Shown here in pieces: positions 8,269-28,552 of a stretch of DNA of 36,078 bases; positions within the stretch are counted from its first letter, which is position 1, and every line of letters begins with the position of its first letter. Where the stretch lies: the NCBI GenBank assembly GCA_913052275.1, contig CAJXDX010000003.1:1-36078 (forward strand), written 5' to 3'. Under the pieces are notes generated by a model. It made no database searches and was not told the DNA's origin. It saw only the letters and a program-made list of their open reading frames with translations. The DNA is from an uncultured Pseudomonadota bacterium. Lineage in GTDB: Bacteria; SAR324; NAC60-12. A program made the position numbers and the translations under genes.

Positions 8269-11200
8269 TCAGTTTTTGATTTGGTTATAAAGTTTTAGAG
8301 AATTGTAGCTGAGATTTTTTCCATAATCGGTTGCCGCTAATGATTTCGCAAAATACATTGTCCCCTCCACAGTAGTGAAATAAGGCAGGTTGTGAAGCAA
8401 AGCGACTCGCCTGATATGTGTTGCATCAACTATGCGTTTCCTCCTGCGGGTAGTGTTCACAATCAGAGATACCTCATTTCTTGCAAGCGATTCAAATATG
8501 TTGTCCGGAACATTCCGGTCCAGACTTGTTTTTTCAATTTTTGTGACACCGGCATTTTTTAATACTTTAAATGTTCCGTCAGTTGCCAGGATTTTCATTC
8601 CGGCCTTCTCAAATTCTTTTGCGGCTGGAATCATACCTTCTTTGTCCTGATCAGTAACACCCATGAACACATGCCCTTGTTTAATTTCTGCTTGATATGC
8701 AGCAAACTGAGATTTCATGAAAGCTTCTTCCAGGTTTTCACCGCATCCCATTACTTCGCCTGTTGATTTCATTTCAGGCCCAAGTTCTGTATCCGCACCA
8801 GAAAAACTTACAAAAGGAAAGACTGTTTCTTTTACAGATACCGTATTCGGTGTCTGATAGATAAATCCGATTTCACTCAATTGCTCTCCCAGCATTAACC
8901 AGGTGGCATATTTTGCCAGAGGATGGCTTATAGATTTACTGACAAACGGAATTGTCCTGGAGGCACGGGGATTGACTTCAATCAGAAAAATCTCATCATC
9001 TTGAACAGCGAACTGTATGTTGATTAAGCCTTTAACTTGAAGTTCTTCTGCCAGTACTTTCCCCTGTGCTTCTAATTTTTCCAGTGTATCAGAATGAAGA
9101 TTTTGCGGAGGTAAAATGCATGCACTGTCACCGGAGTGTATTCCTGCACGTTCCACATGTTCCATAATTCCTCCCAACTCAGATTGATTACCATCACTGA
9201 GCAAATCCATATCTATTTCAACTGCCCCTTTCAGAAACTGATCGATCAATACGGGATGCTCCTTCGAGACTTCCACTGCTTCCTTAAAGTATTCAGCAAG
9301 TTGTTCTTTTGATTCTGCAATCATCATAGCTTGTCCTCCCAGCACATAGGAGGGACGTACTAAAAGAGGATATCCAAGTTTTTCGGCAATTTTTTCTGCA
9401 TCATTTAGAGAACGGGCTGTACCATTTTGAGGTTGCCTGAGATTTAATTTTTTTAACATTGCGGCAAACTGTTCTCGATCTTCTGCACGGTCAATACTTT
9501 TGTATGGTGTTCCCAGGATTCTTACACCAGCTTCATGAAGCTGTTTAGCCAGTTTAAGAGGGGTTTGTCCGCCGAGCTGTACTATCACTCCAAGAGGGCA
9601 TTCTAAGTCGATTACATGCATAACATCTTCAAACGTTACGGGCTCAAAATACAGCCGATCTGAAGTATCATAGTCAGTACTAACTGTTTCTGGATTACAG
9701 TTGAGGATTATTGCTTCAAAACCACGTTCTCTTACAGCCCATGAGGCATGAACGCAACAATAATCAAATTCAATTCCCTGACCGATACGATTAGGGCCGG
9801 AGCCCAGAATTAGTACTTTTGCTGTTTCTGTAGGAATAGACTCATTCTCCTCATCGTAAGTTGAATAAAAATAAGGAGTTTCAGATTCAAATTCTGCGGC
9901 ACATGTATCAACCTGTTTGAACACAGGCAGTATATTCCACTCATAACGGAGGTTCTTGATATGGTTTTCGCTTACATTCAATAATTCCGAAATACGCATG
10001 TCAGAAAATCCAAGTCGTTTCCAATTTCTCAATTTAATTGGAGTTATTTCCGACAACTCACTTTTCATGATGACTTTTTCTTCTTCAATCAGGCTTCTGA
10101 TTTGCCGTAGAAACCAGAAATCTATTCCAGTTTGTTCATATAGAGCTTCATCGGACCATCCTCGCCTGACAGCGTCTGCAACATACCAAATACGTTTGCT
10201 GCTTACTGTTTGAAGTTCATGATCCAGGATTTCTTCCGGAGTTTTGTCAGCAGCAGAGTAATCAGGAGGGTTGAGTCCGGAATGTCCTGTTTCCAATGAT
10301 CTGAGAGCTTTTTGAAAAGATTCCCTGAATGTTCTTCCTATTGCCATGACTTCTCCTACTGATTGCATCTGTGTGCCAAGATGGTCATCAGTAAGAGGGA
10401 ATTTTTCAAAGGCAAACCTTGGTATTTTGGTTACTACATAATCAATGGATGGTTCAAAACAGGCAGGAATTTTTTTTGTGATATCATTAGGTATTTCGTC
10501 CAGCGTATAACCAACAGCTAACTTTGTGGCAATTTTTGCAATAGGGAATCCAGTAGCTTTGGAAGCAAGTGCGGAACTTCTTGAAACTCGTGGGTTCATT
10601 TCAATTACTAGAATTTTTCCATCATCTGGGTTAATGGCAAACTGAACATTTGAACCTCCAGTATCAACACCAATTTCCCGCATGATTTTGATCGACAAAT
10701 CCCTCATATTTTGATATTCAAAATCAGTCAGTGTCTGTGCGGGTGCAACAGTAATACTGTCGCCGGTGTGTATTCCCATAGGATCAAGATTTTCTATTGA
10801 ACATACGATGACTGTGTTATCTTTATGATCTCGCATCACTTCAAGTTCATATTCCTTCCAGCCTATAACGGACTGCTCAACCAATACTTCATTCGAAGGT
10901 GATAAGGCCAGTCCATGGGAAACAATTTGTTTTAATTCCTTTTCATTGTGAGCGATTCCTCCTCCGGCACCTCCAAGAGTGAAAGATGGCCTGATAATAT
11001 AAGGAAAAGGAGTTGTTTCGGTAAAAGCTAATGCTTCTTCTACTGAATGCACAATAATGCTTGATGGCATTTCAATGCCGATTTTTGCCATAGTGTTTCG
11101 GAAAAGCTCTCGGTTTTCTGCTTTATTTATTGCTTCAATTGAAGCACCGATCAGCTCTACACCATTACTTTTAAGCACACCTCTTTCGTTAAGTTTAATT

Positions 11201-24582: not shown

Positions 24583-26127
24583 ATGCCTGCTTTAAAAAAT
24601 AAAGTTCAGTTAATGGATACCACTCTGAGGGATGGTGAACAAACTCAGGGCGTTTCATTTACTCCCCCCGAAAAGGCCAATATAGCAAAATCTCTTTTGA
24701 AAAAGCTTCGTGTTGATCGCATTGAAGTAACCTCAGCTAGAATCTCAGAGGGTGAATTAAGTTCTGTACAAAACATTTCAGGTTGGGCCAGTGAAAATGG
24801 GTATTTGGACTCAATCGAAGTTCTGGGATTTATTGACCACAAAAAGAGTGTTGACTGGATAAAGGAAGCAGGCTGCAAGGTGATGAATTTATTGACCAAA
24901 GGCAGTGAGAACCACTGCAGGAATCAATTGCGTAAAACACTTAAAGAGCATGTTGCTGATATAAGGAAAACCATTAAATATGCTAATTCCAGGAATGTTA
25001 ATGTAAATGTCTATCTGGAAGACTGGTCAAACGGGTATCAAAACAGTCCCAAATATGTATTCCAGATGATGGATGCTTTAAAAGATGAAGGCATAAATCA
25101 TTTCATGCTTCCTGACACTCTAGGCGTTTTGTCTCCGGATCAGGTGTATTCCATGCTTAAAGACATGATAAAAAGGTTCCCCTGGGCAACTTTTGATTTT
25201 CATCCGCACAACGATTATGGCCTGGGAGTGGCTAATGTGCTGTATGCCGTCAAGGCCGGGGTAAGGAACGTACACTGCACAATGAATTGTCTTGGGGAAA
25301 GGGCAGGTAATGTTTCTCTTGCAGAAATTGCGGTAGCTCTGCATGACAAACTTGGCATGGAGCTTTCTATTGATGAGTCTAATCTTGCCCCGGTAAGTGA
25401 AATGGTAGAAAGCTTTTCAGGGAAAAGGCTCCCGGATAATGCCCCGATTGTTGGAGAAAATGTTTTTACTCAGACCAGCGGGATCCATGCCGATGGAGAT
25501 AAGAAGGCAAATTTATATCATAATCCAATTGTTCCAGAGCGTTTTGGTCGCAAAAGAAGCTATGCACTCGGCAAAATGAGCGGCAAAGCTTCACTCGCAA
25601 AAAACCTTGAGACACTGGGAATTCAGCTTGTTGAAGAAAATTTGAACAAAGTACTGAAACGTGTTGTTGAACTGGGCGACACAAAAAAATCAATGACAGC
25701 AGCTGACTTGCCCTTCATCATTACAGATGTTCTGGAAACAAGCGAAACTCAACGAATTGAGCTCCTGAATTGTTCTATTTCCAGTGGACTGAACCTGAAG
25801 GCAACTGCCACAATACACCTGAAAATTGATTCAAAGGAGTATCGTGAAGCTGGAAGCGGAAATGGAGGATATGACGCATTTATGAGTGCAGTTAACAAAA
25901 TATTGAAAAAGCTTAATCTTGAGTCACCTGAATTAGTTGATTATCAAATCAGGATACCAAGAGGCGGAAAAACAAATGCTCTGACAGAAGCAATTATCAC
26001 ATGGCAGGTGAATGGGAAACGTCTTCAGACAATCGGAATTGATTCTGATCAAGTTCTTGCTGCAGTGAACGCAACCCTTAAACTGCTGAATTTGCAATTG
26101 TTGCAAAAGGATGTTCAACAACAATAA
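24583..26127 (+). CDS. cimA: (R)-citramalate synthase / 2-isopropylmalate synthase family (Leptospira/Bacteroidetes CimA type)
   Basis: MDTTLRDGEQTQGVSF, VYLEDWSNG, LPDTLG, FHPHNDYGL, GERAGN, FTQTSGIHADGDKK, C-terminal LeuA-type regulatory domain. Confidence 0.82.
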   Translation: MPALKNKVQLMDTTLRDGEQTQGVSFTPPEKANIAKSLLKKLRVDRIEVTSARISEGELSSVQNISGWASENGYLDSIEVLGFIDHKKSVDWIKEAGCKVMNLLTKGSENHCRNQLRKTLKEHVADIRKTIKYANSRNVNVNVYLEDWSNGYQNSPKYVFQMMDALKDEGINHFMLPDTLGVLSPDQVYSMLKDMIKRFPWATFDFHPHNDYGLGVANVLYAVKAGVRNVHCTMNCLGERAGNVSLAEIAVALHDKLGMELSIDESNLAPVSEMVESFSGKRLPDNAPIVGENVFTQTSGIHADGDKKANLYHNPIVPERFGRKRSYALGKMSGKASLAKNLETLGIQLVEENLNKVLKRVVELGDTKKSMTAADLPFIITDVLETSETQRIELLNCSISSGLNLKATATIHLKIDSKEYREAGSGNGGYDAFMSAVNKILKKLNLESPELVDYQIRIPRGGKTNALTEAIITWQVNGKRLQTIGIDSDQVLAAVNATLKLLNLQLLQKDVQQQ

Positions 26128-26218: not shown

Positions 26219-27520
26219 ATGCGCCTCTCAACTGCTGAAGGTAACCTGTCCGAAATTTATTTCCCCTTGACAGCAAACCCGGCGGGGTATAACCATTTGT
26301 TGCTGGCAGAAAGTGTTCTTTGGCAATTCCCGGAAACACAATCATTAGTATTCATACTTTCCAACGGCAGACATCCCGACCCATTTAAAACCGTCCAAAT
26401 TCCTCACGCCTCTTTACGTTATGAAATTTTAAGAAGCGCTCTATTAGACTGGTCTGATCCTGAAAATTCGCTTCCGGCCAGATATGCTGATGAATCCGGA
26501 GTTTTGCTTAAATTAGGAAGGAATAACTGTACTATTTCCAGGTGGGAATTATCGTTCAGCCGGCCTTTACGTCTTGCTGATCACGTTCAATATTTTTCAA
26601 CAGAACAAAAAATCGCTTTGATTGTAGGTGCAGATTTGATTCAGCGCATGCTAGATCCAAGAATTTTCACAGATACCGATTTAGCTCAAATAGAAAGTGG
26701 CTGTCTACTGATTGCTGCACCCCGTAATGATATTGATTTAAAACACACTTTACAGCTGATTAAACAAAAAAGAGGTGTGAAATTAACTGTCCTCCAAATC
26801 ACTCCAAGTGTGCTTCCGAAAAAACTGCAAAAATTTTATCAAATTTCATCCACACATATTCGCAAAGCAACACAGGCAGGACATTCGCTGGAGACATTTT
26901 TGCCAGCAAATGCCGCCAGGCATATTTCACAAAACTGTTTATATAACAGGCGGGAACAAATCACTGATTCATATTATTCACATTTAAATGAACACCAGCA
27001 TAGTTGTTTTGAATTGAAGGAACAACTGGAAGCAGCAGCCATGAAACTTCAAAAACATCTTGCACAACGAGCAAAAAACGGACAACCTCACCGCTTTTCT
27101 GTTTTGGAAACAAGCACAGGAGGACAAATTGCTCAAACCTTCACAAGTCTTCCCGGAGCTTCAGAGCACTTTCTTGACGGCAGAATTATCTATGGTCAGG
27201 AGGCTCAAAAGCAATTTTTAGCTGTTCAAGAATTTGAAGATTCAAGCGTATCTCAAACAAGAGCGCAGAATCTTGCCAGAGCAATGCAAAGACATTCTGG
27301 TGCAGATTGGGCTCTTGCAGAAACTGGTATGGCAGGCCCTCCATCAAAAGACAGACACAGCAGGAAAAACGGACAATGTTATCTTGGTCTGGTAATATCA
27401 ACTGAAGTAAGGTATAAGTTTCTTGAGTTTAATCCTTTTCTTACGCGAAAAGAGCATCAGCTGATGTTTGCGATCGAAGCATTGGCTTGGGCGGAAAAGG
27501 AACTACAAATAAAGCGCTGA
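26219..27520 (+). CDS. Fusion of a NadD-like nucleotidyltransferase (aa ~12-242) and a CinA-C/PncC-like domain (aa ~270-430)
   Basis: TANPAGYNHL, IVGADL, ISSTHIR, ISQNCLY (NadD-like); ETSTGG.IA...PGAS.HF..G.IIY, ETGMAGP (PncC-like). Confidence 0.8.
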   Translation: MRLSTAEGNLSEIYFPLTANPAGYNHLLLAESVLWQFPETQSLVFILSNGRHPDPFKTVQIPHASLRYEILRSALLDWSDPENSLPARYADESGVLLKLGRNNCTISRWELSFSRPLRLADHVQYFSTEQKIALIVGADLIQRMLDPRIFTDTDLAQIESGCLLIAAPRNDIDLKHTLQLIKQKRGVKLTVLQITPSVLPKKLQKFYQISSTHIRKATQAGHSLETFLPANAARHISQNCLYNRREQITDSYYSHLNEHQHSCFELKEQLEAAAMKLQKHLAQRAKNGQPHRFSVLETSTGGQIAQTFTSLPGASEHFLDGRIIYGQEAQKQFLAVQEFEDSSVSQTRAQNLARAMQRHSGADWALAETGMAGPPSKDRHSRKNGQCYLGLVISTEVRYKFLEFNPFLTRKEHQLMFAIEALAWAEKELQIKR

Positions 27521-27529
27521 TTTAAAAAA

Positions 27530-28552
27530 ATGAAAGAATTACTGCAAAAATTGCTGGCATCAGAAGCGCTCAGCTTTGAAGAAGCACGAGATATGATACT
27601 ATGGATCATGAGTGAAGAAGCTGTGTCTGTTCAGGCGGCAGCACTTTTAGCTTTGCTGCAGGCTAAAGGAGTTACTGTTGAAGAAATGGCTGGAGCGGCT
27701 CTGGCCATGAGGGAACGCGCTTCTGGAATAAAAGCACCTGAAAATGCTATTGACACTTGCAGCACAGGAGGAAATGGAATCAGCACCTTCAACATTTCAA
27801 CATGTGCCGCAATAATCGCTGCCGGTGCCGGTGCGGTTGTAGCAAAACACGGCAACCGCAGCAACACAAGAAAAAGCGGGAGCGCCGAAGCACTGGAAGC
27901 GTTAGGAGTGAATATAACTTTGGAACTTGATGAAGTTGAAAAATGCCTTAAGGATTTGGATATTTGTTTTTGTTACGCGATCAATCACCATCCAGCCATG
28001 CGCTTTGCCGGACCAATACGCAAGGACTTGGGGGTTCCCACTGTATTTAATCTGCTGGGTCCCTTAACAAATCCTGCCGGTGCAAAAAGTCAGTTGATTG
28101 GAGTTCCAAATGTTGAGCTGACTTCGAAAATAGCTCAGGTCCTAAAGCGATTAGGCAGCGAACGTGTACTGGTAGTTCATGGACATGACGGTCTGTGTGA
28201 GCTGACAGTCACTTCCCCTACACATGTGGCAGAACTTAGAGAAGGCAATATCAAAGAATATGAAATAACTCCTAAGCAGCTTGGTCTCAAGACGGGAAAA
28301 TTGGAGGAGATAAGCATAGATACTCCTGAAGAAAGTGCCAGGATAATTGAGCGTATTTTTTCTGGAGATGAGAAAGGCACTGCACGTGAAATTGCTCTGG
28401 CAAATGCCGCCGGTGCGTTAGTCGTATCAGGTCAGGTTGAGAATTTGGAAGAAGGTGTAGATCTGGCAGCTAAGACAGTTGACAATGGAAAAGCAGCAGA
28501 AAAACTTAATGATTTAATCAAGTTTTCATGGGCAAACCATCAGGCTTCGTAA
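27530..28552 (+). CDS. trpD: Anthranilate phosphoribosyltransferase (TrpD family) with variant motifs
   Basis: TFNIST, AKHGNRS, GSAEALEALG, HHPAMR, TVFNLLGPLTNP; variant STGGN and DGLCE motifs. Confidence 0.9.
   Translation: MKELLQKLLASEALSFEEARDMILWIMSEEAVSVQAAALLALLQAKGVTVEEMAGAALAMRERASGIKAPENAIDTCSTGGNGISTFNISTCAAIIAAGAGAVVAKHGNRSNTRKSGSAEALEALGVNITLELDEVEKCLKDLDICFCYAINHHPAMRFAGPIRKDLGVPTVFNLLGPLTNPAGAKSQLIGVPNVELTSKIAQVLKRLGSERVLVVHGHDGLCELTVTSPTHVAELREGNIKEYEITPKQLGLKTGKLEEISIDTPEESARIIERIFSGDEKGTAREIALANAAGALVVSGQVENLEEGVDLAAKTVDNGKAAEKLNDLIKFSWANHQAS

Follow-up and report, generated by a model that had tools for sequence, protein, structure and literature searches.

A fusion of a NadD/NMNAT-like and a PncC-like domain is the only recognisable candidate for an NAD-forming enzyme in a SAR324 genome

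To our knowledge, the route to nicotinamide adenine dinucleotide (NAD) that runs through NadD and NadE is regarded as nearly universal in bacteria. PncC, the deamidase of nicotinamide mononucleotide (NMN), usually shares its chain with the ADP-ribose pyrophosphatase domain COG1058 (available text of PMC3680494), as a first-pass annotation of the DNA studied here had correctly stated, and the CinA domain is described in the available text of PMC3855486 as "occasionally fused with other domains", such fusions being excluded from that study's analysis. Here we describe a different pairing, in which an N-terminal domain resembling NadD and the NMN adenylyltransferases (NMNATs) is joined to a C-terminal PncC-like domain. 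It is encoded on the plus strand at 26219..27520 (stop codon included) of the window, that is, the whole stretch of 36,078 nucleotides analysed (contig CAJXDX010000003.1, assembly GCA_913052275.1, from an uncultured deep-sea SAR324 bacterium). Literature searches found nothing on an NMNAT/NadD-PncC fusion or on NAD metabolism in SAR324; the folds and the pathway logic are known, the domain pairing and the motif variant are new, and the pathway context is unexpected.

The open reading frame starts with ATG and encodes 433 amino acids (aa). The first-pass annotation had called it a NadD-like/PncC-like fusion, and the reading frame together with hidden Markov model and fold matches for both halves confirms that this is a real fusion of the two families. 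The AlphaFold2 model of the full-length protein, built with 27 homologues, is confident (predicted local distance difference test, pLDDT, 90.2; predicted template modelling score, pTM, 0.88). It contains an N-half with the nucleotidyltransferase fold of NadD and NMNAT (26219..26968, +, aa 1-250; Foldseek, family profile against the Protein Data Bank (PDB), and hhalign), a long helix (26990..27076, +, aa 258-286; DSSP on the model) running into the C-half, and a C-half with the CinA/PncC fold (27047..27502, +, aa 277-428; PF02464, Foldseek and family profile). An N-terminal MoCF/COG1058 ADP-ribose pyrophosphatase domain was not found with Pfam, NCBIfam or Foldseek, its place being taken by the NadD/NMNAT-like half. 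The motifs picked out at first pass (GYNH, GAD, ISSTHIR, ETSTGG and YGQEAQ, given below with their coordinates) are all present, and the three deviating ones, GYNH, ETSTGG and YGQEAQ, lie where they had been placed.

Within the window's assembly this frame is the sole NadD-like and the sole CinA-like match, and no separate canonical nadD or pncC, a possibility raised at first pass, was found. The PF01467 matches are limited to CoaD, RfaE domain II (RfaE-II), HldE and RibF, and the only PF02540 match is GuaA, hence no NadE; no gene of the nicotinate phosphoribosyltransferase (NAPRTase) family, either PncB or NadV, was matched in this genome. The fusion is the only recognisable NAD-forming enzyme in this genome. 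The source assembly is 82.8% complete and every genome compared is metagenome-assembled and about 83-97% complete; gene absences were argued from their consistency over 19 genomes, and from no single genome.

Among 64 SAR324 genomes, canonical NadD was not found in 20 and NadE was not found in 19, and these 19 are all also without NadD (the twentieth NadD-less genome, G035, has NadE). They comprise all ten genomes of the window's genus (g1), all three of g8 (96-97% complete), all three of g12, the single genome of g3 and two of three from g11, and the 45 NadE-bearing genomes take in every genome outside these five genera. Canonical NadDs elsewhere in the 64 genomes scored 80-158 bits in open frames of 171-349 aa. 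The fusion is kept in all 19 genomes that are without NadD and NadE. NadC was not found in the 19, apart from a 93-aa fragment in G017, and a strong NAPRTase-family gene is present in two of them (G011 and G022), of NadV-like size and matching NF006629, which we take to be of the NadV/Nampt type. NadM or NadR was not found in five further genomes without NadD and NadE, which show the same pattern of four PF01467 matches, their identities being assigned by size only.

None of the ten g1 genomes yielded a NadE, and nicotinic acid adenine dinucleotide (NaAD) would therefore be a dead end in this genus; without NadC and PncB, moreover, there would be no nicotinic acid mononucleotide (NaMN) to start from. 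With no NadD, NadE, NadC or PncB/NadV found in this genome, the N-half would have to take NMN and ATP to NAD and pyrophosphate, the sole NAD-yielding chemistry left in the genus. Our preferred reading, to which we give about an even chance, is that the protein is an NMN adenylyltransferase that makes NAD directly, coupled to a PncC-like module that would bind a mononucleotide without deamidating it. From the motifs and the lack of an alternative enzyme we infer that the N-half transfers an adenylyl group to NMN or NaMN; that it is active and accepts NMN, and that the C-half binds without deamidation, is likewise inferred. The identities of the domains, the matching of the motifs, their conservation, the purifying selection and the gene content of the genomes are direct results of the analysis.

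Both fold and profile comparisons place the N-half among the NadD/NMNAT enzymes. For the N-half of the model, Foldseek retrieved human NMNAT3 (1nup; E 5.8e-9, template modelling (TM) score 0.76) and NadD chains of Bacillus, Mycobacterium and Escherichia coli (TM 0.70-0.80). A family profile run against the PDB found human NMNAT1 (1kqn) as the best match (E 2e-12), with E. coli NadD behind at about 1e-8, and aligned the GADLL and ISSTKIRRA segments in the comparison with NMNAT1. The ESM Atlas labels aa 1-250 'CTP_transf_like / NadD-family', and some orthologues, unlike the window protein, carry a precomputed PF01467 match. When only the first 64 residues of the N-half were searched against PDB sequences, nothing meaningful came back; the equivalence of the motifs was settled by hhalign profile-profile comparison of 41 family N-halves with 10 canonical NadDs, which matched with 99.5% probability. 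In its columns the family's T-G/A-N-P-x-G-x-[NH]-H sits on s-F-[ND]-P-x-H-x-G-H of NadD, and GYNH (26285..26296, +, aa 23-26) therefore stands in place of (H/T)xGH, with G23 matching its first His, N25 its Gly and H26 its second His. This second His is kept in all 41 family sequences, the motif Gly is Asn or His across the family, and the GG that precedes the first His in NadD is also replaced.

Eukaryotic NMNATs carry T-x-x-H in place of HxGH, human NMNAT1 being likewise without the Gly, and mutation of the last His of the motif serves to inactivate human NMNAT1. If this is so, the family differs from working NMNATs at one motif position. Across the N-half, H26, K57, R67, E110, G137/D139, R169 and S210-S211-T212..R215 align on invariant or conserved NadD columns, and F150 falls in a gapped stretch that holds the invariant Trp of NadD. 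The aligned catalytic-set residues are invariant in the family except S210, T212 and E110 (nearly invariant in A2), and S211, T212, R215, G137, D139, K57, R67 and E110, all aligned with NadD, are invariant or nearly so. GAD (26627..26635, +, aa 137-139), with G and D invariant, is the GxD motif of NadD/NMNAT, aligned with GADLL of NMNAT1 and GxD of NadD, and ISSTHIR (26843..26863, +, aa 209-215) is the SxTxxR motif, aligned with both enzymes. A further motif, SNGRHPDPFK (26360..26389, +, aa 48-57), is specific to the family; its S, G, H, D, P and K are invariant and K57 aligns in hhalign with a conserved Lys of canonical NadD. The N-half looks from these alignments like a diverged but catalytically equipped NadD/NMNAT adenylyltransferase. 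It is less altered than the first-pass annotation implied, having lost only the first His of the motif. Three of the fusions, from G037, G027 and G038 (L048, L054 and L055), carry an extra 20-30 residues or so after about aa 125 of the N-half; they appear as two pieces in the protein search, yet each is one open frame of 474-494 aa.

The C-half is matched by the Pfam model CinA (PF02464) over aa 277-428 with E 1.1e-24 and 87.3 bits, above the cut-off of 23.5, and by Foldseek to the PncC/CinA chains 2a9s, 5v01 and 6l19 (TM 0.8-0.89); the family profile matches Thermus thermophilus CinA with E 6.8e-18. Both halves thus withstand the refuting condition set at first pass, a lack of any profile or structural match for one of them. 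Residue equivalences for the C-half were taken from an alignment of the window protein with T. thermophilus CinA, and residue roles from the available text of PMC4246079, PMC3855486 and PMC5384747. The catalytic Ser of ESCTGG is S31 of Agrobacterium tumefaciens and S29 of E. coli, and the general-base Lys is K63 of A. tumefaciens and K301 of T. thermophilus; Table 1 of PMC5384747 reports undetectable activity for the A. tumefaciens mutants S31A and K63A.

In block P-I, ETSTGG (27107..27124, +, aa 297-302; by alignment) replaces ESCTGG and T298 falls on T. thermophilus Ser-269, the proposed nucleophile; family-wide the residue here is T, S, A or N, or is missing in a gap, and a Thr there might still act as the nucleophile. 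In block P-III, YGQEAQ (27191..27208, +, aa 325-330) replaces YxNxxK, keeping Y325 and placing Q330 on Lys-301 of T. thermophilus CinA, the general base. Of the 41 family sequences, 15 have Gln here and 26 have Lys, and all nine aligned g1 sequences have Gln. Since the residue that follows the Gln is K or T within g1, K331 is no conserved substitute. The Asn of YxNxxK survives only in four g10 sequences.

The blocks concerned with ligand binding are kept. GAS (27155..27163, +, aa 313-315), the phosphate-binding block P-II, has an invariant S315 and a nearly invariant G313 (roles from the available text of PMC4246079 and PMC5384747), and ETGMAGP (27320..27340, +, aa 368-374) preserves block P-VI, with a family-invariant E368 before the Thr. 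Overall, conservation is complete or nearly complete at G313, S315, Y325 and G370-P374, and T369-P374 is retained in the window protein; the Thr of TGxAGP varies among T, S, N and A across the family (N in four g10 sequences, A in g3). RKEHQ (27446..27460, +, aa 410-414), with an invariant H413, is a family-specific motif near the canonical PncC RxxVR site. Position 410 is R or K throughout the family; alignments to solved chains stop short of this region, in which R410 may be the counterpart of A. tumefaciens R145, the Arg of block P-VIII that binds phosphate. Conserved binding positions beside variable catalytic ones are, judged on sequence, what a ligand-binding derivative would show, and the C-half would keep the residues that grip the phosphate and ribose of a pyridine mononucleotide. 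As the general-base Lys is lost in g1, binding of NMN or a close relative, with no deamidation, is the likeliest activity of the C-half there. If the chain also held a working deamidase, the substrate of the N-half would be destroyed, and the loss of the Lys here fits with this. The module might serve in substrate capture, hand-over to the N-half, allostery or regulation, or might carry out a new reaction.

The first-pass annotation had put forward a two-step salvage enzyme, in which the C-half would convert NMN to NaMN, and the N-half NaMN to NaAD; NadE would then finish the route. The domain order of these activities suits an entry into the Preiss-Handler pathway, and Lys is present in 26 of the 41 sequences, 20 of these being from NadE-bearing genomes and 19 of the 20 from genomes that also have canonical NadD; two-step recycling may thus be the ancestral function, and Thr at the Ser position could be its nucleophile. 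For the present organism, however, the proposal is not supported: NaAD could not become NAD in any of the ten g1 genomes, none of which has a recognisable NadE, the Lys is replaced by Gln in all nine aligned g1 sequences with no constant Lys following it, and the K63A mutant of A. tumefaciens is inactive (PMC5384747, Table 1). The near-complete loss of the Asn of YxNxxK and a score of 55.4 bits with the narrower model TIGR00199 (PncC_domain), below its cut-off of 68.9, point the same way, and we regard two-step recycling as improbable for this gene.

In SAR324 families without the fusion, the CinA domain scores 145-184 bits in proteins of 419-474 aa, and the two canonical SAR324 CinAs inspected read ESCTGG, GAS and YSN(E/Q)(A/S)K. 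A high-scoring canonical CinA was found in no genome of the fusion-bearing order, some of which have lower-scoring CinA-like genes. Five genomes of family f2 (G007, G003, G004, G010 and G001; L065-L069) encode stand-alone CinA-domain proteins of about 180 aa that score 134-143 bits and have AESS[AST]GG, GAS, YTxx[AS]R, with Arg for the catalytic Lys, and a fusion-like ETG motif.

The residues particular to the family's C-half raise another alternative, that this half works as a hydrolase or an isomerase by means of new catalytic residues (E368, K383 and E412/H413) and acts on another amide-bearing or related nucleotide, the N-half adenylylating its product or substrate. The protein would in that case serve a nucleotide other than NMN, be it a pyridine nucleotide or not. 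E368, H413, G385 and F417 are invariant and S381, K383, E412 and Q414 nearly so, all of them absent from canonical PncC, and an insertion, RRSxKNGQ, and the KEHQ motif are specific to the family. Given these extra family-invariant residues, the C-half may have a new catalytic role; the CinA fold also includes paralogues without deamidase activity (available text of PMC3855486), and selection on the C-half equals that on the N-half in strength. However, the positions kept are exactly those that bind the phosphate and ribose of NMN, no neighbouring gene suggests another substrate, and the 19 genomes would still need an NAD-making enzyme, no other having been found. We consider a new catalyst in the C-half unlikely.

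Returning to the preferred reading, direct synthesis of NAD from NMN beside a non-deamidating module, a number of observations weigh against it. The N-half of the window protein has no Pfam match at all, PF01467 included, and the NCBIfam NadD model TIGR00482 matches aa 102-242 with E 3.3e-13 and 50.1 bits, below its cut-off of 112.45. The first-His position of HxGH is Gly in all 41 family sequences, neither His nor Thr, and catalysis may be crippled as a result. A preference for NMN over NaMN cannot be read from the sequence. In the C-half, E368, K383 and H413 look like catalytic equipment, beyond what mere binding would call for. The Lys is kept in g8 and g12 despite the loss of NadE, so that the two losses are only loosely coupled. 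The supply of substrate is a further difficulty: PnuC (PF04973) gave three weak matches in the 64 genomes, all with internal stops, and none above the cut-off save one stop-containing match, with no match above it in the 19 genomes, and no clear riboside kinase was found, the AAA_28 matches being weak and generic. Most of the 19 genomes show no recognisable way in for NMN, nicotinamide riboside or nicotinamide, and because no source of NMN was found there the proposed pathway is without a known input.

A simple rule equating loss of the Lys with loss of NadE was considered and rejected, because g8 and g12 are NadE-less with Lys and G027, G005 and G039 combine NadE with Gln. In G039 (L020, G039:C69), the sole member of the Gln clade with both genes, nadD (9821-10396, +) and nadE (10475-11200, -) are adjacent; its NadE has about 280 aa and scores 228 bits, as against about 680 aa and 71-89 bits in other f1 genomes, and the two look like a re-acquired pair.

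The departures from canonical signatures also bear on the pseudo-enzyme idea, likewise raised at first pass; in this reading the protein would be without catalysis in both halves and act as a sensor or scaffold for NAD precursors. Each half is off the catalytic signature of its family in at least one position, and the scores fall below the curated cut-offs for NadD and PncC_domain. This idea fits the C-half in part and the N-half poorly, as the latter matches the conserved NadD columns everywhere but at the first His and in the glycine-rich stretch ahead of it. Moreover, Pfam and NCBIfam scans found no output or DNA-binding domain in the protein, and a pseudo-enzyme would leave 19 genomes without any route to NAD; we consider it very unlikely.

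We examined the distribution of the family. A word-indexed search recovered 131 homologues, and among the 120 listed most have 380-508 aa and seven are shorter. Where names are given, they read 'CinA family protein [SAR324 cluster bacterium]', 'PncC family amidohydrolase' or 'nicotinamide-nucleotide amidase'; three JGI records are named 'NMN deamidase PncC/nicotinic acid mononucleotide adenylyltransferase', automatic annotation having already noticed both domains. The full-length fusion occurs in 42 of 43 genomes of the window's SAR324 order (33 of 33 in family f1, this genome included, and nine of ten in f2) and in none of the 21 genomes from other SAR324 families, in which there are only partial matches to the C-half. 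At E <= 1e-30, an exhaustive search with the N-half profile gave 33 representative clusters; those of full length have 414-508 aa, and the shorter ones are fragment-like. Full-length members scored 195-328 bits, followed by short fragments and then by ordinary proteins of about 200 aa at 66 bits or less; the ten nearest proteins outside the family that were scanned are all TIGR00482 NadDs, and among the 150 matches listed there was no full-length N-half (about 250 aa) without a C-half. This gap in scores, with TIGR00482 NadDs as the nearest outsiders, indicates that the N-half forms a separate branch of NadD/NMNAT that has diverged strongly.

Purifying selection acts on both halves, with ratios of non-synonymous to synonymous substitution rates (dN/dS) of 0.02-0.31 overall. 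Median values within g1 are 0.19 for the N-half and 0.20 for the C-half (28 pairs, of which 25 and 27, respectively, were usable), and close pairs of g8 and g12 give 0.02-0.10. The dN/dS test was run without G011, which has a gap in the C-half, and all alignments were made without G015, which has an in-frame TGA. A quick tree, uncertain as to the long branches of G022, G005 and G002, groups the Gln sequences of g1, g11 and g3 in a single clade (96% support) and has Gln arising anew in g7 and g16. The first-pass substitutions are, then, conserved among homologues and not sporadic, the Gly in 41 of 41 and the Gln clade-wide.

In the G015 orthologue (L010, G015:C88:8684-9967) a single in-frame TGA lies in the linker between the halves, at about aa 237-240, leaving frames of 252 and 192 aa; it may reflect an error of assembly, or else the gene may be a pseudogene or naturally split. 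The G011 orthologue (L015, G011:C4:13394-14536) is without a stretch of about 40 C-half residues that includes window aa 366-386, its second piece matching separately, which is likely a deletion or frameshift of the assembly.

That two of the ten g1 copies are interrupted in their assemblies might suggest a decaying gene or a chance fusion, the substitutions being degeneration. The presence of the fusion in nearly the whole order, the low dN/dS in both halves, the clade-wide nature of the substitutions and the confident full-length model all argue against decay, which we find hardly credible.

Not all relatives are in the situation of g1. Of the 42 fusion-bearing genomes, 22 have canonical NadD and 23 have NadE, and the presence of the fusion alongside NadD and NadE in some genomes suggests that its role is not redundant. 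Where relatives have NadD, NadE and the Lys, the protein may be a two-step enzyme, or may recycle NMN directly beside the deamidated route; a parallel is the species that has both NadD and NadM (PMC3680494, Figure 1 legend). Extending the preferred reading beyond this genus, we put forward, as a tentative proposal that we think may well prove wrong, that several SAR324 genera have dropped NadD-NadE, de novo synthesis and nicotinate salvage, and would obtain all their NAD through an NMNAT with a Gly in its motif, joined to a repurposed PncC module that might be an NMN receptor or a new catalyst supplying or gating NMN.

The consistent loss of NadD and NadE in five genera of SAR324 (a marine clade by source names and run labels), with the fusion left in place, speaks for a minimal, amidated way of making NAD. 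It would imply a dependency of the vitamin B3 type that shapes the life and the culturing of these uncultured cells, which, if this is true, would depend on importing amidated precursors (NMN, nicotinamide riboside or nicotinamide) by an as yet undescribed route. For enzymology, it would mean an NMNAT that functions without the first His/Thr of its signature motif, and a deamidase fold seemingly turned into a binding or differently catalytic module. The annotations 'CinA family protein' and 'PncC family amidohydrolase' hide a possibly essential NAD-forming step.

Upstream of the fusion lies a gene resembling citramalate/isopropylmalate synthases (24583..26127, +), matched by NF042433 (CimA, Leptospira-type (R)-citramalate synthase) with 681 bits, below the cut-off of 950, and downstream, 9 bases past the stop codon, lies trpD (27530..28552, +; TIGR01245, 384.7 bits). 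A cimA-like homologue was found inside the fetched locus (1.5 to 4 kb on either side) in 24 of 41 loci; in 10 of 22 representative loci at most one gene separates it from the fusion, and purC lies in between in some genera. Adjacent trpD occurs in nine of 41 loci, all from g1, and other flanks include purC in g2, g4, g5 and g9 and, in family f2, recJ and a D-Ala-D-Ala carboxypeptidase gene. The 41 fetched loci share no recurrent NAD-linked neighbour, and none of the neighbours hints at another substrate; as the flanks are housekeeping genes, the neighbourhood offers no functional clue. The gene is partly covered by contigs from four RNA libraries of four studies, one contig bridging its stop codon and the start of trpD, which is weak support for transcription, carry-over of DNA being possible.

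Among known systems, the N-half most resembles human NMNAT1 and NMNAT3 (1kqn and 1nup), its best profile and fold matches, with which GADL(L/I), (I/L)SSTxIRRA and an aromatic residue after GxD align. The family differs from eukaryote-type NMNATs in having Gly for His/Thr, the SNGxHPDPxK motif, an insertion of about 23 residues and a PncC-like fusion partner. It shares with bacterial NadD (TIGR00482; E. coli 1k4k and Bacillus anthracis 3e27) the fold and most invariant columns. In contrast to NadD, the fusion is without the first His and the preceding GG, scores below the family cut-off, is present beside a canonical NadD in 22 of 42 genomes and persists where NadE, the user of the NadD product, is absent.

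The C-half has in common with PncC (A. tumefaciens 2a9s, T. thermophilus CinA 4ct8 and E. coli YgaD) the fold, GAS, the Tyr of P-III and TGxAGP, but Thr or a variable residue occupies the Ser position, the Asn has gone except in the four g10 sequences, Lys has become Gln in g1, and the RRSxKNGQ insertion and KEHQ are added. According to the available text of PMC3680494, CinA (COG1058 with PncC) and NadM-Nudix (NMNAT with ADP-ribose pyrophosphatase) follow the same logic of two NAD-recycling modules in one chain; the present fusion instead joins the alternative branches that consume NMN, adenylylation and deamidation, with no ADP-ribose pyrophosphatase. The inactive PncC paralogues of the E. 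coli YdeJ and YfaY lineages resemble the C-half in departing from the catalytic blocks on a kept fold, and its block P-IV, S-S-V-S, is near the S/T-A-V-S of YdeJ homologues (available text of PMC3855486). The YdeJ type has, according to the same text, lost the phosphate-binding blocks and the Tyr, whereas the fusion family keeps both.

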